Assembly (NCBI RefSeq): GCF_021028975.2
Contig: NC_059428.1
Coordinates: forward strand, 90,396,001-90,460,000
Length of the DNA: 64,000 nucleotides
Source of the DNA: Sphaerodactylus townsendi
Lineage: Eukaryota
Reading direction: 5' to 3'
Shown: positions 1,859-55,150 of the stretch, in pieces
How positions within the stretch are numbered: the first letter of the stretch is position 1
Layout: each line of letters starts with the position of its first letter
The notes under the pieces: generated by a model
What the model was told of the DNA's origin: nothing
What the model saw: the letters and a program-made list of their open reading frames with translations, nothing else
Database searches by the model: none
Made by a program: the position numbers and the translations under genes

Positions 1859-2998
1859 GAAGGAAGGCAGGTTTAAATGATAGTAATAACACCAGTATTA
1901 GTAGTCATTATATCTGATGTGATTCCTGATACTAAAAAAGCTGCCATACAAATTATGCTCTGCTGCCAATAAGACTAATGCCAGATTTCAATATGTGTTC
2001 CTGATAATATACAAAATTGATTGATTATCATCTAGAGTACTGAAATGAACCATTAAGAAACTCAGAAGTTGGCACAATATAGACTTAATAATTACAGAAG
2101 GTCACCCAAAGAAACAAAACTAATTACTAACCGATGTGAATTTTAGATAGATGTCTAGAGAAATGGTGATTTGAATGATAGAAATTCAATTGTTCTTGCA
2201 TTCCCATACTTCAGTATTGCATTGATAGACTGGTGTGTATTCCACAATGCCTTGTGCATTACAGACTAATAGACAGTTGCCAGGATTTCCAAGAGAAAGG
2301 CATCAGCAGCCTTTATTAAACCCACTGTCACTTCATGCCTGAGTAGCCAGACTGACTGCATTTGTTTCAACAGCTCTGCAAATGTGAGTTAGTCACCCTG
2401 TTTCGTTACAGCAAATTTAACCATAAAGAGGTTCCCAATGCACAATGAAAAGGGGAAAAAAGAAATTGCACACAAATCCTAGCTTGTGTTCCAGGCTTCT
2501 ATAGTTTTTCACAAATGCTCAGTGGCTTTGCACCATGGAATCAGAACACACAAAAGATAAGAAGAGACCTTTTTTGTATAGGCCACATCATCTCTAAGGC
2601 ACTCTGCTGTATTATCTGCTGGATCTTTTTAAATTCACAGTAAAGAAGAGATTTGCTATTGCCTGTATTAATAATGTAACCCTATTGAGGAAACAGCTCT
2701 CTCAAGGAAATATGCAGATGATTAACAAGCATTTGACCTCTATAGGCACTGCAGGTTTTGGTTAACTAGGATAAGTAGATTGATCTTTCGTCACTTGTTA
2801 GGTACCAAGGAAACATTCATGAGAAACACTAAAACACATATATCAGATTTTGGCACAGAGATGTCTGGAATAACCACGGAAAAATCCAACTGTCCTGAAA
2901 AAATTGACTCTCAACCACTATTCCTCTCTCATGAATAAATGCAATCCTAAAATCCTGAAAAGAGAGGAAACATAAAATGTATAAGTCTGTGGTTTCCA

Positions 2999-3062
2999 GT
3001 GATTGCATTTGTTTTATGTGATTGCATTTGTTTTATGCATTTGTGATTGCATTTGTTTTATG
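2999..3062. repeat. Short tandem repeat, gtgattgcatttgttttat x~3
   Basis: Direct inspection. Confidence 0.8.
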
Positions 3063-8211: not shown

Positions 8212-11200
8212 TTTTTTTTAATTAATAAGTTTATTAGTAAATTAAAATATAATACAATAATAGATATCTTGCATTATACATAAAAAAAACCTTACTGTAT
8301 ATAAAGTTGGAAATAATACATCGTTACAGTCTAACGGCATATTTCTTAAATTTTCTTATTTAAATTCTCCCACAATGGGGAGTATGTTCGCCGAATAGTT
8401 AAGTAGGCTTCTCTTCCTCATTAACAAATTAACAAATTAACCTATTATCAGTAAAATACGGAAAGTATAACTTTTAGAGCTTCACTTTCTATGTAAAACA
8501 TGTACAACTAATAATTTTGCAAAACATTCAGCGTTGAATTTTGACTTTCAATTCATTTCTGTCTTGTTTTGAAAAAAAAAAAGGTTTTCAGGGGTGTCCA
8601 AATATTTTCTCTTTTCTTTTGTATCTTCTTCCTGTAAAGATAATGCAATGCAATCCATATCCATAAGCATGTAAATTTTTTTCTAACCATTCATCTAAAA
8701 GATGGAACCTTTCTTTACTCTTCCAGTTGGCTTCGCAATTAGTAAACCTTGCTGTCACCGTAAGGCAAGTTATGCTTAGAATGCGTTGGAGTTCTTTTAT
8801 GTCATTGTATAAATTCCCTAACAAATATGTAAATCCCTGGTTCCATCTTTTATATTGTAAATTAAGAATTTTGCATTTGAAAGTATGTATATTTTACACC
8901 AAAAAATCTCTTAACTTTTTTTGCAGTGCCACCAAGAATGGATGAAGGTACCTTACATCTCTCTCGTGATTTCCAACAACATATTGGGTATGTATTGTTC
9001 ATTTTCGCTATGGCTACTGGAGTTAAATACCACCTATGTATCATCTTATATGCATTTTCTTTTATGTCCATACTTAGAATGGATGTATTTGCTCTCTTCC
9101 AGACTGTTTCCCATTCATTTAAATCAATGTTTCTTCCTAAGTCTTTGGCCCATAGTAACATAGTATTTTTCACTAGTTCGTCTTCTGTTTCTAGGTCTAT
9201 TAGATACATATAGATCCTGCTTATTAGTTTTTGTTGCCTTTAGATAGAATCTCATCAAATTTAGTGGGTTTATGGTGGAAACCAGTATATTTTTGGTCTT
9301 TTTTGAAACAGTCGGTGAGCTGCAAGTAGGTATACCAATTGCATTCTTTCCCTTCTATTTGGATGTCGGTTCTTTCTTTTAATTTGGGTTTTCCTCCATC
9401 AAATTCTAGTGTTTCTTTATATGTTGGCCATCGGGTGTTTCTCTGCCAGCCTTTCATATTTATTGCTTCTAGACTTGAAAGCCATAAGGGGGTAGTTCTA
9501 TATAGCAATAATCTATATCTATCCCACACTTTGATTAATGCTTTCCTTATGTAGTGCTGATTAAATTATCTATATTTTTTGTTCTCATCTATTAGCCAGA
9601 GTCTTTCGTGCCAGCCATAATTTAAGTCATAGTTTTCCAAATTTAGGATGTTTATATTGGACAACTCTATCCAGTCCTTTATCCAAATTAATGCATTCGC
9701 CACATAGTATAAATGTAGGTCTGGCAAAGACATACCTCCCCTTTCCTTCCTGGAAATCATTATTTTGTAATTTAACTTCAGGGGGTTTTCTCCCACTTCC
9801 ATATAAATTTGTTAATATCTCTTTTCCATTCTTTGAAGGGTTTTAAGTTGTCTATAAATGGAATAGATTGTAATAGGTACATCAGTTTGGGTAGTATTGC
9901 CATTTTGACCAATGCAACTTTCCCTAGAGTGGATAAGTTAATGTTTGTCCATTTGTTTAGATCTTGTTTAAGTTTTTTCCATAATCGTACATAATTGTTC
10001 TTATAAATGTCCTGGTTTTTTTTGATAAGTTGATTCCTAGATATTTAACCTCCTGGACTATTTTACAGCCTGATATCTCTGCCAATTGAGTTTCTTCTTT
10101 TTTTATTCAGATTAAATGCTAGAATCTTTGTTTTTGCTTGGTTAATTGTGAACCCTGCCAGGTTGCCAAATTCCTCTATTGTCTGCCAGAGATGTTTAAT
10201 TTTGTTTATTGGATCGTCTAAGATGATCAACGTGTCATCTGCAAACACCTGTATTTTATAATTTATTCCTCCAATTTGTAATCCTTCTAATTTTTTGTCT
10301 TTTCTGATGTTTTGTAGTAGCAGTTCTAAAACCCATATGAATAGTTGGGGGGAAATTGGACATCCCTGTCTCGTACCTCTATATATATTAAATTCATCAT
10401 GAGCTTCACCATTTATTTTTAAAGTGGCCTTCTGGACTCTATATATTAATTTAATTATATCCAAAAAGTTCCCTTTTAATCCTATTTTTTCAAATAGTTT
10501 TAACATAAATAGCCAATTAATTTTATCGAAGGCCTTTTCGGCATCTAGGAAAATGAGGGCAAGTTTTTTATTTGGTTTAGCTTTCAGGATCTCAATAATG
10601 TCAATAGTCGTTCTGAGGTTATTTTTACTATGTTTGTTTGGTAGAAAACCTCTTTGCTCTTCTTTTATCCACTTTACGGATAGTTTTTTTTAGTCTTTCT
10701 GACATTACTGATGTCAGAATTTTATAATCGACATTTAATAAGCTAATTGGCCTAAATTTGTCTACTTCAGGGATTTCATCTATTGTTTTGGGAATTAATA
10801 TGATATGATTTCTTTTCCAGGTATCTGGGATATCTCTAGCCCAAGTTATATTGTTGAAGAGTTCAGTAAGTATGTTCAAATTTTCTTCTTTGTATGTTTT
10901 GTAAAATAATGATGTAAAACCGTCTGGACCTGGCGACTTATTTAATTTTAATTTATTAATTGTTTGTTCAATTTCTGTCTCTGTAAATGGGCAGTTCAGC
11001 CCCCTCGAGGTCTTCTTTGGGGTATATATATTTATATGCTTTGTGGCTGTCTAAGTAACTATCTATCTTTTCTTCTGGTACATCAATCTTTTTTTTGATA
11101 TAAATTAGAATAATAATCATTCAGTTCCCTTTTAGCCATTATTTTTGGGTCTGTTATATTTATACCATTTTTTTAATTATATTAATAATTTTTTACTCTC

Positions 11201-12476
11201 ATTTATCTCCCTTATTTCTTTTGAAGAGAGCCATTTCCTCGATTTATTAGCCTGGGGCAAGTAATTGCTATATTTGGATTCAAGGCTTTAAGTTTTGCAT
11301 TAGGAGATCTTCTATTTCTTTCTTCCAATTGTTCTCTCTTATTAATTCTTATATTCTTTTTCAGTTTTTTTTGTTTAGGGTTTTTTTTGGAATTCCAATT
11401 CTCGAGATTTTGAGGTTTGACCATAAATTTTGCTCTGTTGATCTCCAGATTTTTTTCCCTGTTTTATTTCTTGGCTTATATATGAGCCTCCTCGCAAGAT
11501 GGTAGCTTTTAAAAGTTAATCCCAGGACATATTTAAATTATCTATGGAATTTTTTATTTAAATCCCAAAACTCTCTTTGTAATTATTGTTTCTTTGGCTT
11601 TGTGCTATGATGTTCTTCCATTTTAACTAGCCAATTTTTTTAATTTCCATAGTCTGATTTTTCTTTTTCCTTTGTGCCACTTTCTAGTTCAATCAGATTG
11701 TGATCTGGACAAGAACTTTGGCAAGATCTTAATATCTGTAATTTGTTGGTTAATCTTTTCCTGTTGCCCAAACCTATGTCCAATCTTGAGTGTATTTTAG
11801 TGTCTATAAGAGTAAAAGGTGTAATCCCTAGAATTTCCATTTTTGAGTCTCCAAACATCCTTCACTTTAATTCTCTTCACTAGTTGGAAAAAGATTTTTG
11901 TAAGGACATTATGTCTCTTTTTTGGTCTTTTTTTTAACTTTGTCTTGTTTCTTTCCTATCTATTTCGGGGTTTATTAGGCCATTAAAGTCGCCCATTATT
12001 ACTAAGTTGTCTTCTGTAAATTCTAATAGCTTGTTTAATAAGGTAGAGTAATAATTGTTTTTCTTGCTTGTCTCTGTTGGGGCATAAATACCTACCAATA
12101 TAGTTTTTTCACCCCTTATTGAAATTTCTATTATTAAAGTTCTTCCTTCATTGCCTGTAAAAAGTAGTTTTGGGTTCAGATATTCTTTTACATAGAATAC
12201 AACTCCCCGTTTTTTTTTTCTTACTAGAAGCATGGAAAACTTTCCCCAAGGTATCATTCTTAAGTAATCCCACGTCATTCTCCTTAATGTGTGATTCTTG
12301 GAGACATATTATGTCATAATTTCTCTTTTTTAGATATTGGAACAGTTCTTTTCTCTTCCTAGGATTGTTAAGGCCATTTATATTATCAGAGTATAGTTTA
12401 CAATTCATAATTACCTTTGGTTATAACAGATAACAAAATTAATAATATTTCTTTACTCACTAATACCCTTCTTGAC
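8212..12476 (-). mobile_element. L1-clade LINE, 5'-truncated just upstream of ORF2, with poly(A) and 14-bp TSD
   Basis: APE endonuclease (NINGLNNPRKRK..IICLQESH; GIYAP; MGDFNG). RT motifs KSPGPDGF, FRPISLLNVDYKILT, FLDAEKAFDKINW, RGTRQGCPISP, FADD. C-terminal Cys-rich region. AATAAA(-) at 8230-8235 plus A-tail. TSD aggaagaatatttc at 8198-8211 and 12477-12490. Confidence 0.95.
8588..12408 (-). pseudogene. L1 ORF2 (endonuclease-reverse transcriptase), frameshifted in this assembly
   Basis: Collinear ORF pieces 12148..12408, 11934..12278, 10628..10879, 10063..10506, 9566..9802, 9224..9529, 8862..9209 and 8588..8824 on the minus strand. Confidence 0.9.
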
Positions 12477-12699
12477 AGGAAGAATATTTCAAAGGGTTCT
12501 GGGGGCTTTAGTGGGAGAGGAAGAGGAAGATTTGCTCCATGGGTGAAAATTCTTACACCCAAATTGGGCTTATTGCATCCCCAGTTGTTTTTCCATTTAA
12601 TGCAAAGTAGTGTTAATGTAATGTAAAGGCCTAAGAGAATTAAATGTCCCTGATTTTAATGAATTTAGTGGTCTCACCTTTGGAATCTTATATGACCTA

Positions 12700-13706
12700 C
12701 TAGCGGGCCTGACCACGCGTTGCTGTGGCAATTGTCCTTCTCATCACAGTCCGCAACCCACACAGATGTCCATGCAGGTCCAATGATCTCCAGCATAGCC
12801 TTTTGGGGTGGTCAAATGGAATCCCTCTTTCCCTTTTCAATTCACATTGTTATATGGTGCTGTCTTTTTTTTAGTATAAGGTAACCCTTTCCATTCCACA
12901 ACGGAACTGTCCAGAGTGTGAATCCCGCTGTCCATGAGGCTGGTTGATACGCACAGTCCTGGCTTGAGTAAGGCAGAAGTGGGGCAAGGAGGCTATCCTA
13001 GTCAGGCAGCAGAGGCAGGGTGGTGAGGTGCTCAGATCGAGGCCACCTCCCTGGGTTCTTAAAGGGCCACATGCAAAAGAAGTGGAGCCGGTAGTGTTGG
13101 TTCGCCCCCACCCCACAGCTTTTCTTAGAAGAAAAAGGCAAACTCCAGCTCGCTTTTAGTAAAAGAGAACTGTAGCAAATATGGGTGAGGAAGTGGGTAA
13201 GTGATGGTTGGATGTGAGGGAGGGCAGAGTGAGGTGTGTGAGGATGAGCTGGATGTGTATTGTGTGGTAGCAGTAGGTGAGGCACAGAGAGTGAAAGTTA
13301 CCTGCGTGTAAGGGGGGGAACCCAACTGACATCTCACACGGCAAAGTGTGTAAGTGTTTCACTTCCACTCGTATTACCTAACAGTATTACCTATTTACTG
13401 TTTTCACTGCTCATCTCTGGCCATCTGAGCAAACATTCTAAAGGCATCCCAAGCCCTCAGGCCACAGACAGACAGGCTGCGCGAACATTCTAAGGGTGAC
13501 AGTTAAACACAGCCAGCTTCATGGCCTGGTGCGCCAGGAAAAAGACGTATTACCTGGCTCAGGTATGGACTTTCGGCGATTTGAAGGTCCAATTACCTTC
13601 CTGCAACAGGGAGGGATGTCCTGTGAAAAATTGGGGGGCAATCCATCCAGCAGCTTCTGAGGGAGACCATCAAGGACAAACACACTGTTCAATTTATATA
13701 GATAGA
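12700..13706 (-). mobile_element. Non-autonomous Helitron (rolling-circle transposon), ~1.0 kb
   Basis: Minus strand starts A|TCTATCTATATAAAT and ends gccacagcaacgcgtggtc (hairpin)-aggcccg-CTAG|T. Inserted between A and T with no TSD, matching the canonical Helitron termini. Confidence 0.85.
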
Positions 13707-13914
13707 TTTCTAACTCATGGGGATCCTATGTAGAGTAGAGGGTGAATTGGTGACTTGATTGGGAGCAGAAGTTTCAGTTACTAGATAACAGTCCCTGGAG
13801 CTCAGTAAACTGGAGCTAATAGGAAAGGCTAACAATCATTTTGTGGAGAAATTTAGTGTGAGACTTTTAGAAAGGGAGGTCTATTTAAGACTACTATTTA
13901 AGACTACTAAATAT

Positions 13915-14636: not shown

Positions 14637-16901
14637 AAAGCCCCACACTATGCTCCCATCTGAATCCCCCCTACGCACCAGCACACTTGCAAAGCTTACT
14701 GAGAAATCCACAGGAGCCCCGGCAGAGATTGTTCACAGTTCCAAGCATCCCATTTGCCACTACTGACGGATCGCATCCAATGCTCGCAGCTACTCACTGC
14801 TGAGCCACAAAGCAGCAGGCAAATTCACCCCGCTGGCATAGTAGGCAGGGATTCCCAAGCAATTTCCCCAAAAAAGCATCTCAGCCCGTGTAACCCAACA
14901 CTGCCTGGAGTGAGGCAAACAGGGTTTTGGGCACTGCAAGGGCAAAGGGGGCTGGTGCCAAACAAGGAAACCCCCCTCCCCAAAGACTTCAGCCTCTAGC
15001 TCTCCCTGGCAGTGCCAACTGATTGCTTCCATGGTTTGCAATGCAGCACATGATCTTCCTCCTCCTCTGGTGTTTCTGGGAAAGCAGGAGAGCCCAGCTT
15101 TGCGGAAGATGCCCAGCCCAGCCCAGCCCAGCGACCAAGCGGCACCTGAGAAAAACAAGTGGCTCTCTCAAACCCAGGGAGTGGTGCCAGTGCATTCCAG
15201 CGGGATGCTCCCCTGCAGCAGCCCCCTGCCTATTCAGCCACTCCTATGGGCACAAACTCAAAACAAACAGTCATGTATTCAAGTCTGGCATGGGGCAGAT
15301 GCATTTCCCTTGGGGCGGGGGTCACAGCTGTCTGTCAAGCCCCATGCTGCCTTTCAGGGATGCCCCCCCAAGGTGCCAGTTGAGCGTTGCTCCCCTCCCA
15401 CTTCTTAACTTGCTTAACCTGCCTGCTGCAGGGTCCTACCTCAAAATCCCACTTTTACAGGAGAACCCCTGCGCCTGGGGGCTGGGTTGTGGGACGCAAA
15501 GCCATTTCTGCAGACTGGCATGTATGTGTGCACACCCATGGTGCTTCTGGGGGAGGATCTGCAGAGCGGTTGGGCTGGGGGGAAGGAGGTTCAGCAACAG
15601 CAGCAACCCCGGGCGGGGGGAGGGCACCGCCTGGCATACACATGGCAGTGTTTGTGTAAAAATAACCCATGGCACCTGCAGGCGAGCATGAACAGAAAGG
15701 AGCATCTCACAAACACATACACACAAACACCACCCGAGCTGGCACCTTTAAGCCCGAGGAAGGGAAAGCCAGGCATTGCAACCCACCCCTGAACTTTGAG
15801 TTTGTCCTCCCAGGCGCGCGAAAGCTCCTCCTCCCTTAGTTTGACAGGGGACCAAACCCTCTCCAACAAAGGGCTGCCAAGGGCGCCGATCCACTCGCTT
15901 CTTGTGGGAATGCGTGTCTTGTGTCCCCAGCGTCCCCCCCCCCACTCCAGAGAGTGCAGCACCCCTCCAGGAGGGCAGCAGCAGAACCTGGGGGCAGCGG
16001 GGGGGGGGACAGGGAACTCTCCCCGCCCCACTCCAAGCCCAGCCCTGGCAAAGGGAAAGAGCAGGGATCTGGACAGCAAAGGGGATGCTGAAAAAGAGGA
16101 GTGGCAGGAGGAAGGGATAGGGTGCAGTTTGGTTTGCTGGGTGGAGAGACCCTCACTCCCACACAGGGAACATTGGGTGGTCTAGGGGCTCCTCCTCAGC
16201 TCCCCTCCTCACCTGCCCCCAGCAGTGTTGGCTCCTTGAGCGCACCCACTGTCTGGCTGTGTGTGGGGGGGGGAGAGATGGCTGCCAGTGCCTCTCACCT
16301 GCCTCCAGCGGTGCTTGGGCGCCCACAGTTTGTCCGCATTGCTGGCCCATTACTCCCCCCCTCCACAGCCGGACTGGTTCCTGTGGGCCATGGGCGCGCT
16401 CGCGGAGCAAACACTGGCGAGGCGGGTGAGGCCAAGGAAAGGCTGACAAGTCCGGCTGTGTGTGTGTGGGGGGGAGCGATCATGGGCTGGTTCGCTGCCT
16501 CGCTCACCTGCCACCACCTGTTGTTGCTGCTGCTGGGCTCCCACTTGGCTTCCCTTCTCAGCTTTTGCCTTCTTCTGTGCTGGCCAGCCCGGGGAGAAGT
16601 CTTGTGACTGTTTGCAGGCCGGCCGGAAGAGAAGGCAAGGCATGCCGGCTCAGAGGGAGGAGGAGCTCCCGCCTCCGAGGCTTCTGATCTTGATGACTCA
16701 CAGCCCCTGCAGAGGTCAGGAGAATGCCTGGGAGGGTGGGGATTTTGCACGCCCCCTGGACTGGACATTCCAGGCCACCGTCCTTGCTGGACTGAGGCAT
16801 GGTGGGTAACTGTGGGGGACATTTTGGCGCCCCCCATGTGACTTTAATCGGTGCGCCTGGGGACAAGGGGTACCCCACGTCCCTAGGCAAATTCACCACT
16901 G
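14637..16901. other. GC-rich block of unknown origin ending in a hAT-like terminus
   Basis: Abrupt rise in GC and CpG relative to the flanks. The right end ...ggcgcccc...ggggacaaggggtacccc...aattcaccactg resembles the ends of the elements at 31014-31287 and 18215-19134. Left terminus and TSD not found. Confidence 0.5.
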
Positions 16902-33064: not shown

Positions 33065-34715
33065 TTTTTTTAGTTCAAAGACCTTTATTAGGCATTAATA
33101 CGTAGCAGAACTAGGTAATCCAAATACAGTTTAACAAATAAAACAGGTACTCCTGTTTCATAAAGTGCATACTTCAGAGAGAAAGAGGAACCCAGGAAAT
33201 TATTTTGTAATTGTGAGCAAAAATTTGGCTGCTATGTCCAGTTGCTTAGGATTCTTTGTATTCAGAAGACAGTTCAATTTAAGATTAAAAAGGCTTGGGT
33301 GGACCAGTAAGGGATCTCCTAAAAACAGGTTTGGTCTAAAATCGTTAAATTTTGGACAGACTAATAAAATGTGCTCCAATGACTCCTCAGAGGTTTGACA
33401 ATATTCACAGATACGCTTTTGCTGTGAAGGTACCATGAATCTATCTGGGGAAAAGATTAGTGGAAACGTGTTGGTTCTCGCTCTGGTTAATAGCCACCTC
33501 AACTTAGGGTCAGGCAAGATGCTTAAGTATGCAGCTGTCCTGCATTTCCCGAGCATGATGTTAAAATGGGGGGAGGGGGGGAGAGAACAAGTTCCTTGCT
33601 TTACTAACTAGATATTGGTGTTCCTGATCAAATAGCTGTACCTTGATACAATGTCGTGTCTCACTAGGAGAAAGCATAAGGACCTGGTCCCAAGAAAGAC
33701 CAAGGGAGGAAATCTTTGATTTGATATGAACCCACCAGGTAGAAGATTGAAGTTCGTGGAGGGTGCAATAAATGAGACTATTAGGGTTATTAAAGAAACA
33801 TAACCGAATCCAAAATTTAAAGGTGGCCCACCATGCTTTTGTTTCCAAGAGGTGTAGTCCTGCCTCGAGGCAGAGGGCAGCGTAGGGTACACAATGGGGG
33901 ACTCCGAAAAGCTTATATAAAAATTTAGATTGTATTCGCTCCAAGGATATATGCCAGGCTTTGATCCATAGGGAAACCCCATGGAGAAGTTGTTGGGACA
34001 CATTGGAATTAAATACCCTTAAAGCGGCAGGAATAAATCTGCCACCCTTAGTAAAGAAAAACCTTTCAATGTCAGCAGAAGTGATTTGACAACTCTTGAC
34101 AACAGTTTCCCTATGTTTGACCCAACTAGATTTGTGATGGAAATTAATGCCCAAATATTTGAAGAACTTAACCTGTTCAATAGAGTCATTATCAAAGTGC
34201 CAGTTAGAAATCTTGAAGGTACTTGAAAAGACCATGATCTTAGATTTGAGAGGGTTAATTGACAGCAGGTTGTTATTACAATATTCGCTGCATTTATGTA
34301 AGAGGCAAGATAGACCAACCTTGGTGCGAGATAGTAAGAGCGCATCATCAGCATAAAGCAGAATTGGCAGTGGCATGTTCCCTAATGAGGGACAGTGTGA
34401 GTCAATTGGTCTCAAAGTAGGGGCAAGGTCGTTTAAAAACAGATTGAACAGGAAGGGGGCCATAACACAACCTTGTTTGACTCCTTTGGTTACTCTAATT
34501 TGGGGGGTCAATAGGCCAAGAGGCGAGCATTTCATTTGAAAGGTGTTGTTGGTGTACAGGGCTTTTATAAGCGCTAAAAGTTTGGGATCAATTTCCAGTG
34601 CCCCCAGTTTCTGCCAGAGAAGCTCTCTTACGACTGAATCAAAAGCTCCTTTTAGATCGATAAAGGCACTTATAATTAAGCCTCCATGGTTTTTGGGTAA
34701 CTTACTCCAAAGTAA
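33065..34715 (-). mobile_element. RTE-X-like LINE, 5'-truncated, with poly(A)
   Basis: AFIDLKGAFDSV, KGVKQGCVMAPFLFNLFLNDL, LLYADD, FKYLGINF, and C-terminal RICEYC..EESLEHILLVCP (CCHC). AATAAA plus A-tail at ~33065-33090. Confidence 0.8.
33200..34535 (-). pseudogene. Non-LTR reverse transcriptase plus C-terminal zinc-knuckle ORF fragment
   Basis: 324-aa ORF 33561..34535 and 118-aa ORF 33200..33556, separated by a frameshift in a G/C run. Confidence 0.85.
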
Positions 34716-36064
34716 GTATACATAGGAGGTTGATATTTGACAGATTTAAAACTGTTTAGGTTTATATGAAGTTACAATCTTCTATCCATTACAATCTCAC
34801 TTCCTACCATGTAAGATACAAAATGGAGTTCTCACTATTTGAAATGTATTGTCATAAGATTGAATCATAAGATTGAATCATAAGATTCCTTGGCAAAAAT
34901 GGTCTTGGTGCCTCATAGTATTAAGTGTTATCAGTGAACTACTTCAATACTTGCTGCCTTGCCTGTGGGATAATCTGGTTATTATATGAGAGAAACAAGA
35001 TTGCTATTTTTACTTTGATGCCTGTCAAAATGGCCTGGAAGGGGATCTTTTAAAAATGTTTACATTATTCTACTATGTCATGAAGCTTCCTGGGTGAATT
35101 TGAACCAGACTCTCTTTTCCAACCAAACCTCCCTCACAAGATTGTTGCTAGGATAAAATGGAGGGAAAGAAAAATGTGTGCACTGAACTAAGCTCCTTGG
35201 AGGAAGGGTTGGATTGAAAGTATGATTGATAGTCAGAAAATTACACTCAAACCAATGGATATGAAAAATTCTTTTATATCTCTATTCAAGAGTACCCCTC
35301 GGCCAACTATTATAAGATGCCAAAAAAGGTAGCAAAGCAACTGAGTGCCATTGAATCGTGACATGTATCTTGTCCTCCCACATCCTGAAATGATGGCCTC
35401 AGATAAAAACAAGAGGACTTAATGGTCTGATTGTAGTATCTGGATCTTCAATTATATATACTGTATGTTTTAAAGTAATTTCTGTAGGACTATCATTGGA
35501 AAAATAGGTTTATCATAACTTTATAGCAACCTGTAATTTATGAACTTTTCTGAATAGAATTTACAAGAAAATTGAATATCATTAAGAAGAAGCTATTTTT
35601 ACTAGGTCTGTCTGAGGTCAGAGTTGCTTTAGAGAGTAAATGGCTACGTCTGCCCATCTTGAGTAAATTGCTTGTGAATGACTTTGTAAAGCAGAATTGC
35701 TTTAAAACAGACAGTTGAAATTGCTTTCCTAGCTGTTAGCAAACCACCGAGGCTATGTAATGCATGTAAAACAATTCCTGAATGAACAGACAGAAATTCT
35801 TGCTGTATCTTGCAGAATGCTGATTTTAAAAAAAGCTTTAAAAAACCTTCCGTAAAATAGAGATCAACATTATTGACCTATAGGGCAGACTGATTCAACA
35901 TATGTATATACCTGTTCAGGTATACTTAGATATCTACCATACTCAATGGCTATATTCAACTTTGCAACAGTAGTGAATTTCTAAGATCATTGAGAATAGT
36001 TTAACAACTTAACCAAAACTAAACGTATAACAATAAATAGAAACAAAAATAAAAAAATAAAAAG

Positions 36065-52055: not shown

Positions 52056-53404
52056 TGGTAAATCTGTGAGTAACAGGGCAGCAACCATCCATTGGTTGTA
52101 ACCAGGTCCAGGACACTAAATATAGTAGCCCCCCCCCCCATAGTCCTGCGAATCCATGATAGAATCCACTTCATGATGCACATCTTCTCCAATTCACTTG
52201 GAAGGGGGCACTTCTAACCTTGGATGCCAATGAAAGGCCAAGGGTGCCTTTTTTAGCAAGCTGCAATGGAACACAGGATATATACCACGTATGTTCTTGG
52301 ATAACTCTAATTCGATTGCTACAGGGTTGATTACTCTTCACAATGAATTTGTGCCCCAGTTTTTGGCTCCCCTGTAGCCCTCTCAGGTTTTTTTTGTGGA
52401 CAGATAGGCAAAATCCTCCCTTTCATACACCATCTTTCGATGTTTCCTTCGCCTTCTGTAACGTCTCCCTTCACCTTCTGTAATGTTCCCTGAATGATTT
52501 TCCAGGAGTTTCATAGGTCCATGACCATGACCCACACCTGCAACTTTCCTGGCTCCTACCCCCACTGTTCCAACAATGGGAATGGCTTCCCCTCCTGGCC
52601 ATATACCACTTGAAAAGGGCTCTTGCCCATTCTGCTATGAGAAAAAAGTAGAAAGATCTTACTTTTACCACAGAGCAAGAATTTGAATGAAGGGAACAGA
52701 ATTTTCATTTTCCACTCATTTTGCATCATTCCTACCTATAATTCATTACTTCAGGAACTTATCCTCCACCTGGATTCACTTCTTATTTCAGTTGTGGGTT
52801 GGAAGAAAAATGTCTGAATGTGAGGAACAGTGAAGTATGGCAGGTGCCCACACCCAAGAGAGAGAAAGTGGCTTAAGCTCTCATCAATAAAATACCCTTT
52901 TTTATATAAAATGCAAGTCCTTCAATATTAAATGTTGTAGACATGGGAAGAACAAATTTGACCATCAAATCCAGTTTAGCCCAGAAAAGTACAGTAAATG
53001 CATATTTGGGGCAAGGATCAAGTTAATATAGAAAGGATGTTTGATGGTACAGTCCCTTAGGTTTTCACATATTTCTGTTCCTGAAAAAAAGCAAGGCCAA
53101 ATGTTTACTAAACAACTTCAACAAATGATGTGGATGAAAGTCAGAATCTTGGATTTCCTGAACTGGAACATCCATCATGCTATAAAAATGATCATATCAT
53201 GCAATTTCTTCTGTACAGATAATTAGTTACCTAAGTGTGCTTCTTCAAATTCTTGAGTGTTCAAATAATCAGTTGACTAGTTAGAAAACTCCACCAAATG
53301 AACAGATGATTAATCAAAAGAAAAGTATGAATGCACACAGAAGGAAATGTTTTCAGATATACATGTTTTAAGATTTAAAGTTATAAGTGTTTTCAATTTT
53401 AATG

Positions 53405-55150
53405 TCAACTCTAATATGAGGGGCAGGGAACTAGCTAAGATAGTGGTAGACAAGGAAGAAGTTCTGGCAGCCATTGATAAACTAAATGCTACCAAATCCC
53501 CTTGCCCAGATTGCATTCATCCAAGAGTTCTTAAAGAGCTCAAGCATGAAATTGCTGATCTTCTCACTTTAATATGCAACTTATCCCTGAAATCAGGCTC
53601 TATCCCTGAAGACTGGAAGATGGCCAATGTCACACCAGATTTTAAGAAAGGATCTAGGGGGGACCCGGGAAATTACAGGCCAGTCAGTTTGACATCTGTT
53701 CCTGGTAAATTAGTAGAATCTATCATTAAAGATAAAATTATTAAACATGCATAAAAGCAAGACCTGCTGAGAAAGAGTCAGCATGGCTTTTGCAGAGGCA
53801 AATCCTGTCTTACAAACTTACTAGAGTTCTTTGAGGGTGTAAACAGGCATGTGGATAAGGGGGAACCAGTGGACATTGTCTACTTGGATTTCCAAAAAGC
53901 TTTTGACAAAGTTCCTCACCAGAGACTATTGAGAAAACTCAGCAATGAAGGAATAAGAGGGGAAGTCCTCCTATGGATTAAAAACTGGTTAAGAAACAGG
54001 AAGCAAAGAGTGGGTGTAAATGGGAAGTTCTCACAATGGAGAGATGTGGGGAGTGGTGTCCCCCAAGGATCCATTTTGGGACCAGTGCTCTTTAACCTAT
54101 TCATAAATGACCTGGAAGTAGGAGTGGGTAGCGTGGTGGCCAAGTTTGCAGATGATACCAAATTATGTAGGGTGGTGAGAGCCACAAAGGATTGTGAAGA
54201 GCTCCAGGAGGACCTTGAAAAATTAGCTGGGTGGGCTAAGAAATGGCAAATGCAGTTCAATGTAGCAAAATGCAAAGTGATGCACATAGGGGCAAAAAAT
54301 CCAAACTTCACATACACGCTACAAGGGTCAGTGCTATCAGTCACAGACCAGGAAAGGGATTTGGGCATCTTAGTTGATAGTTCCATGGGAATGTCAACTA
54401 AATGCATGGCAGCTGTGAAAAAGGCAAACTCTATGCTGGGGATCATTAGGAAAGGAATTGAGAATAAAACTGCAAAGATTGTCATGCCCTTATATAAAGC
54501 AGTGGTGCGACCGCACTTGGAGTACTGTGTCCAGTTCTGGTCGCCGCATCTCAAAAAGAATATTGAGGAGATAGAAAAAGTGCAGAGAAGGGCAACGAGG
54601 ATGATTGAGGGACTGGAGCACCTTCCCTATGAGGAGAGGCTGCAGCGTTTGGGACTCTTTAGTTTGGAGAGGAGACGGCTGAGGGGGAATATGATTGAAG
54701 TCTATAAAATTATGCATGGGGTAGAAAATGTTGACAGAGAGAAAATTTTCTCTCTTTCTCACAATACTAGAACCAGGGGGCATACGTTGAAAATGCTGGG
54801 GGGGAAGAATTAGGACTAATAAAAGGAAACACTTCTTCACGCAACGTGTGATTGGTGTTTGGAATATGCTGCTACAGGAGGTGGTGATGGCCACTAACCT
54901 GGATAGCTTTAAAAGGGGCTTGGACAGATTTATGGAGAAGTCGATTTATGGCTACCAATCTTGATCCTCTTTGATCTGAGATTGCAAATGCCTTAACAGA
55001 CCAGGTGCTCAGGAGCAGCAGCCACAGAAGGCCATTGCTTTCACATCCTGCATGTGAGCTCCCAAAGGCACCTGGTGGGCCACTGCGAGTAGCAGAGAGC
55101 TGGACTAGATGGACTCTAGTCTGATCCAGCTGGTTTGTTCTTATGTTCTT
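53405..55150 (+). mobile_element. Young CR1 LINE, 5'-truncated, with intact 3' end
   Basis: Near-intact RT: KSPCPDCIHPRVLKEL, GNYRPVSLTSVPGK, VYLDFQKAFDKVPH, SGVPQGSILGPVLFNLFINDL, KFADDTKL, RPHLEYCVQFWSP. 3' end ...ctgatccagctggtttgttcttatgttctt. Confidence 0.97.
53410..54813 (+). pseudogene. CR1 ORF2 reverse transcriptase domain (one stop at ~53752, frameshift at ~54800)
   Basis: ORFs 53347..53754 and 53851..54813 (320 aa) are in the same frame. Confidence 0.93.

Follow-up and report, generated by a model that had tools for sequence, protein, structure and literature searches.

The window analyzed here, a 64,000-nucleotide stretch of the genome of the gecko Sphaerodactylus townsendi (contig NC_059428.1, positions 90,396,001 to 90,460,000), contains a 1,007-bp non-autonomous Helitron on its minus strand (Table 1). 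Read on that strand, the element opens at 13706 as ...agaaa/TCTATCTATATAAAT, with TC starting directly after an A, and closes at 12700 with ...CCACAGCAACGCGTGG, a further 9 nt, and CTAG/t; its flanks are without target duplication, as a preliminary description of this DNA had noted. Just left of the Helitron, decayed LINE reverse-transcriptase and endonuclease frames are visible by eye (8862-12308), and others lie at 33200-34745 and 53314-54813. The segment at 15000-16900, 1.3-3 kb from the element's 5' end, is GC-rich (55-66%) with modest CpG, and no gene was identified in it.

Table 1. Features of the Helitron copy, in positions of the 64,000-nucleotide window
Feature	Position	Strand	Remarks
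Whole non-autonomous Helitron copy	12700..13706	-	1,007 bp; 5.0% from family majority
5' terminus (TC, TA-rich)	13610..13706	-	83.5% over 97 columns to 5' end of RepHel-bearing L051
Stretch common to sister non-autonomous family (L060)	13527..13609	-	no origin found
Two short antisense pieces of the second autonomous lineage's 5' subterminal region	13383..13526	-	82-96% over 28-54 bp
5' non-coding DNA and one CA/CT-rich minisatellite unit of autonomous lineage	13164..13359	-	L061, L047, L051, L059
Captured piece 1	13140..13163	-	L125 2281-2258, ~1,050 bp upstream of SH3PXD2B ATG; 1 mismatch/24 (family majority)
Captured piece 2	13075..13148	-	L125 1735-1652, ~515-430 bp upstream of ATG; 11 mismatches/74 columns, 3 gaps
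Captured piece 3	12986..13075	-	L125 1595-1506, ~375-285 bp upstream of ATG; 7 mismatches/90
Captured piece 4	12877..12993	-	L125 780-664, inside intron 1; 85% over 117 bp
Junction sequence without explanation, ~21 bp	12856..12876	-	
L051-type 3' end	12700..12855	-	91% over 157 columns; L051 deletion derivatives 85-95%, 19/19 further loci
Subterminal hairpin, imperfect, 16 nt	12713..12728	-	9 nt before CTAG

The hairpin reported before CTAG is present, although its spacing is 9 nt rather than about 8 and it is imperfect and weak by energy. At -3.7 kcal/mol it is matched by 18 of 200 shuffles, so that energy alone is unexceptional, and a longer stretch around it favours a different weak fold. 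The same hairpin is kept in several families and in RepHel elements, and it is because hairpin and ends are repeated across copies, not because of folding energy, that they exceed chance expectation. By analogy with the cited portion of PMC4778049, the hairpin is likely a termination signal. TC and CTRR termini, insertion between A and T with no target duplication, and a hairpin of 16-20 nt about 10 nt before the 3' end are features of Helitron1, and the element has each of them, the hairpin being weak by energy. Among 57 distinct full-length copies, T follows CTAG in all 50 in which CTAG could be located, and of the 49 with a pattern-placed start, 37 have an A in front of TC, starts being ambiguous in TA runs; the many copies at A/T sites for which the preliminary description had asked thus exist. 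Helentrons (Helitron2) are marked by subterminal inverted repeats and insertion in TT. The A/T sites and the lack of an inverted repeat between the two element ends speak against membership in that group. An Rfam scan of 12500-13900 gave no match at E<=1, tandem repeat calling found none inside the element, and the element's 3' motif is absent from viral contigs. One empty site, paralogous and with a 3-base gap at its junction, was recovered among 43 copies tested. The orthologous empty site that had been predicted was not found: runs of organisms A, B, and D seem to carry the window insertion, a reading based on only 12 element bases in the compared stretch, with run X1 maybe the source.

The element belongs to a large family. 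We observe 39 other near-full-length matches at 90-93% identity (40 scored among 4,587 candidates), which bears out its identity as a Helitron. An interior 24-mer has 1,629 exact matches in the genome (control, 0), donor and window copy included; the first 30 of these places in genome order are all family copies, 26 of them with both ends, in keeping with the dispersed copies with linked ends of Helitron1. Since the exact 24-mer survives in 23 of 29, 5 of 8, and 14 of 20 members of copy sets chosen in other ways, correcting for mutated 24-mers raises the estimate from at least 1,600 copies to a likely 2,000-2,600; another search, with the element's cargo, returned 2,326 candidates. The suggestion of a squamate Helitron family holds for both lizard host and family. 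The 57 full-length copies, which are mostly best hits, lie on average 4.3% from the family majority (3.1% outside CpG), and the 30 genome-order copies 4.8%. With 3.1% and a borrowed lacertid substitution rate of 2.56e-9 (PMC12001565, Table 1), the main burst would date to roughly 12 million years ago. The window copy holds 20 CpG sites and the majority 34, and this decay, as in methylated DNA, suggests silencing.

Several related elements accompany the family. Exact matches to the last 25 bases number 227 in the genome; of 30 such places examined, 11 belong to the SH3PXD2B-cargo family described below and 19 do not, those compared among the latter belonging to a second non-autonomous family of ~730 bp (L066-L093, e.g., L077 and L078) with the same last 30 bp and another interior. 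In a sister family (L060:6513-7481), the 5' 450 bp are in common at ~78% and a purine-rich repeat interior replaces the cargo. In a subfamily (L152, L157, L165, L167, L175; also L114-L116 and L169), 320-340 bp of a common genomic repeat, presumably SINE-like, are inserted at element position ~904-911 and flanked by short duplicated words; the presence of this insertion in 6 of the 30 genome-order copies indicates that it was amplified inside the Helitron. Head-to-tail Helitrons of the same or different families occur at L002, L174, L187, L065, and L124, the last with several Helitron copies, one of them partly inverted.

The interior is a mosaic, as the preliminary description had it, and the GT-rich tract singled out there exists, but the blocks are shared by the whole family and are not unique to the window copy. 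The idea that the interior could be captured sequence stands for about 290 of the 1,007 bases (12877-13163), which are host DNA; it fails for the GT-rich tract, which by its matches is Helitron-derived non-coding DNA and not cargo, 13164-13359 deriving from the autonomous lineage of L051 and L046. Two antisense pieces come from a second autonomous lineage (L049, L052, L053, L054, and L062); in L062, at 2620-3010, we also observe an inverted duplication of the element's own 5' end. Within the 3' end, 12767-12839 also matches another high-copy repeat (runs X8 and X12), and the autonomous lineage probably acquired it earlier. No RepHel coding remnant was seen, in agreement with the first reading, the element matching RepHel loci only in their non-coding parts, and six-frame translation of the cargo yielded nothing recognizable by eye.

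The cargo consists of four collinear same-strand pieces of a single-copy donor locus, L125 (G000:C3:97.71 Mb), spanning 1.6 kb, so that single-copy host matches for interior blocks do exist. Donor and family are 76-96% identical across the pieces. Pieces 1 to 3 lie upstream of the ATG of SH3PXD2B, in either its promoter or its 5' UTR, and piece 4 in intron 1; junctions between pieces overlap at short shared words. Piece 3 contains CCCTTTAAG, which we take to be a TATA-like motif. Two large stretches deleted from the cargo match only the donor (1 candidate each) and are thus single-copy. The largest holds a 24-codon exon 1 with a GT splice donor, the next exon being 24 kb away. The peptides of exons 1 and 2 coincide with the N-terminal residues of proteins that carry the name SH3PXD2B, and an SH3PXD2B record labelled Sphaerodactylus townsendi shows 100% identity over the last exon; by these matches the donor is the single host gene SH3PXD2B. 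The donor was found via the loose end of an organism L contig that matched the element only at 13008-13069, its piece 3 match continuing on both sides into donor-like sequence. Among the 29 other loci retrieved by a direct cargo search, there were only family copies. The gene was not detected in a Pfam scan covering 138 frames around the donor, was absent among the matches listed from a genome-wide PX domain search, and gave 0 hits in a PDB search with exon 1. In intron 1 of SH3PXD2B, antisense to the gene, lies a broken endogenous retrovirus with gag and protease matches (L130:1-5370; G000:C3:97.700-97.705 Mb).

An origin of the cargo from spliced mRNA is ruled out, given that its junctions fall at short shared words and not at GT-AG and that piece 4 is intronic. 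We also considered the reverse direction, in which the SH3PXD2B locus would hold decayed pieces of a Helitron copy. The identity of donor and family, which is below that among copies, could be read in this way. However, the donor locus is without match to the Helitron ends or other element parts, its pieces are spaced by single-copy DNA including coding exon 1, and organism L carries the SH3PXD2B locus in the same form, so that we regard this reading as very improbable and already largely refuted.

Capture of host DNA by the Helitron is thus the direction we adopt, and elements that may have moved the family are present in the same genome, which holds 22 Helitron_like_N profile matches. One of these elements, L051, is 7.3 kb long and shares both ends with the family, providing the RepHel partner with the same ends that the preliminary description had proposed to look for; its RepHel is broken. 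Another, L046 (4015-8577; G000:C6:121.15 Mb, minus strand), has a 1,520-codon RepHel frame without interruption, with domains Helitron_like_N (Rep) and PIF1, shares its 3' hairpin with the family, and is a candidate for a recently active autonomous Helitron; its 5' end matches that of the family at only 78% over 63 bp. Partners with like ends, as known for Helitron1, are therefore L051 and L046/L047. Since the RepHel of L051 is broken and the 5' match of L046 is weak, both are no more than candidates for the exact mobilizer of the family. The closest named relatives of the L046 RepHel are from the Anolis lizard (72%) and insects (up to 71%).

We are confident that the window element is one of at least 1,600 non-autonomous Helitrons carrying four pieces from the start region of SH3PXD2B, likely mobilized by the RepHel of a related full-length element. 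The history we propose takes as fixed points what is directly observed: termini, A/T sites, copy number, a like-ended partner, a single-copy donor, its gene identity, and the loss of exon 1. A Helitron 5' end would have come to sit upstream of SH3PXD2B, and ~1.6 kb of genomic DNA would have been read through in the sense direction of the gene; because an intron is included, the captured material was DNA and not mRNA. An L051-type 3' end would then have been added to the captured stretch. Before the main burst, three deletions, each at a short repeated word, would have cut the cargo to ~290 bp, removing the ATG exon and the splice donor. The RepHel protein of a related full-length element then probably copied the family around the genome. 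Sense-strand genomic cargo behind Helitron 5' DNA fits the read-through model tested for bat Helraiser, where, in the cited part of PMC4778049, the 5' end bypasses the terminator and takes downstream DNA. No copy with the deleted donor stretches was found, the 121 loci examined holding no further donor sequence, and the order of capture and deletion is accordingly one that we infer; several separate captures from the one SH3PXD2B locus are an alternative.

Family copies might also act as dispersed promoters or exon traps, by analogy with HelibatN3 in bats. Of the long pieces, piece 3 has been preserved best, and it is oriented with the element, and bat Helitrons with gene 5' ends are stated in the cited part of PMC4224331 to reach higher copy number. 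Such a role nevertheless appears unlikely here, as the cargo has lost exon 1 together with its splice donor, which makes exon trapping in particular unlikely, a simple pattern scan of the window copy found no donor-like site downstream of piece 3, and the CpG decay is that of methylated DNA. The window copy is most likely inert, and any remaining promoter activity is only putative.

The single-copy donor provides a rare ancestral reference for the fate of DNA inside a Helitron, here short-repeat deletions and a loss of G that is biased by strand. Read along the TC-to-CTAG strand, the family majority differs from the donor at 34 sites, 19 of them from a donor G and 3 from a donor C, where 56% from G would be expected (p=0.004; outside CpG, 13 vs 1). 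By type, there are 9 G>C changes versus 1 C>G, and 8 G>A versus 1 C>T. As to direction, the organism L contig, read manually, agrees with the donor at all 4 readable sites, and the donor G is still segregating among copies at 3 sites. Across 85 copies, variants confined to a single copy show strand symmetry (138 from G, 183 from C; p=0.69). Those present in at least 4 copies, which are not polarized, share the tendency of the cargo (33 vs 21; p=0.013). At fourfold sites, GC skew is -0.43 to -0.65 in five RepHel frames of the L051/L046 lineage, -0.13 to -0.34 in the second autonomous lineage, and -0.26 in one host exon. Six of the 9 G>C changes fall in GYW (p=0.003), the context expected if cytosines on the opposite strand were deaminated. 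It replicates only weakly, GYW holding 5 of the 12 G>C variants that copies share, compared with 38 of 182 sites, and autonomous elements display no GYW depletion. The loss of G from one strand may point to biased mutation during rolling-circle copying. More specifically, rolling-circle transposition could carry its own strand-specific mutation signature, with G lost while the DNA is carried in the element rather than once it has inserted, its composition moving toward that of the G-poor autonomous elements; we put this forward tentatively and at somewhat less than even odds, the pattern coming from one capture and 34 sites, with thin controls, and having been noticed after looking. If true, Helitron-captured host DNA would be a readable record of the copying of the transposition intermediate or of host attack.

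The element or a part of it is present in 19 runs under 12 organism labels, of which 8 runs were compared; no RNA data set is among the listed runs that hold it. Contigs of organisms H, J, and L carry family alleles. These observations raise the question of whether the capture took place in another lizard lineage, the element and its cargo then being horizontally transferred into (or out of) this gecko. The donor-like contig of organism L differs from the G000 donor at 16 of 60 loose-end bases (manual count), and another contig of the same organism, aligned to 12820-13040, departs from the window copy at 8 places, the 7 listed being all family alleles; family alleles in an organism whose donor flanks have diverged so far would allow for such a transfer. 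Contigs of X12 and X17 differ from the window copy at 39 and 45 places, close to the spectrum of window copy versus majority (42 places); they are nearly absent on the window flanks, and those of X12 also on the element ends, a lack of cover that was given no weight as evidence. The mix of lizard and insect sequences among the nearest named RepHel relatives points the same way. On the other hand, piece 3 of the family is nearer to the G000 donor (3 of 62, majority) than to that of organism L (11, window copy; manual counts), X12 comes from the same study as family-rich runs and X19 also holds family pieces at a depth of 2.5-3.7, so that cross-contamination is possible, contigs collapse copies into a consensus, and the compared organisms bear code labels that carry no information on kinship. 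We therefore consider transfer between lineages possible but rather doubtful. If the hint were true, vertebrate regulatory DNA would have been moved between species by a transposon, a possibility raised in the cited part of PMC2997563.

Our literature search found no paper joining Helitrons with SH3PXD2B or with the element's hairpin word, and the matches listed included no title dealing with gene capture by gecko Helitrons or with strand bias in Helitrons. The gecko element is indeed a Helitron1 of the non-autonomous kind, the host cargo of which has been identified, and its closest counterparts, as far as the cited portions of the respective papers describe them, are found in bats, frogs, and lizards. 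Young and abundant lizard Helitrons are known as the Anolis non-autonomous families Helitron-1/2_AC and HeligloriaB (PMC3014272, PMC2997563), Heligloria and Helitron-2_AC being delimited by more than 80% identity across their final 30 bp. Among named relatives of the L046 RepHel, one from Anolis is the closest. The cited parts of these two papers present the Anolis families as internal deletions of autonomous elements, one being a composite with Poseidon and SINE fragments, and describe no host-gene capture, a distinction drawn from the written descriptions. Heli1Xen1 is likewise a Helitron1 with TC/TA-rich and CTAG ends, occurs in lizards, and captures mostly gene 5' ends; its hairpin (CCCGTTA...TAACGGG) is absent from the gecko element, and its captures are described in Xenopus, with up to 17 copies per gene (PMC12001565). 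HelibatN3 and other promoter-capturing bat Helitrons (PMC4224331, PMC4778049, PMC2997563) also took genomic DNA from the 5' end of a single-copy gene, intron 1 included, and reached more than 1,000 copies. HelibatN3 keeps six codons and the splice donor, whereas the gecko element has lost the first coding exon together with its splice donor, and it further differs in its gecko host, its SH3PXD2B donor, and the division of its cargo into four pieces. Helitrons that capture the 5' region of a gene and multiply it in large numbers are thus known not only from bats and frogs but, through this family, also from a gecko, and here the donor gene is named.
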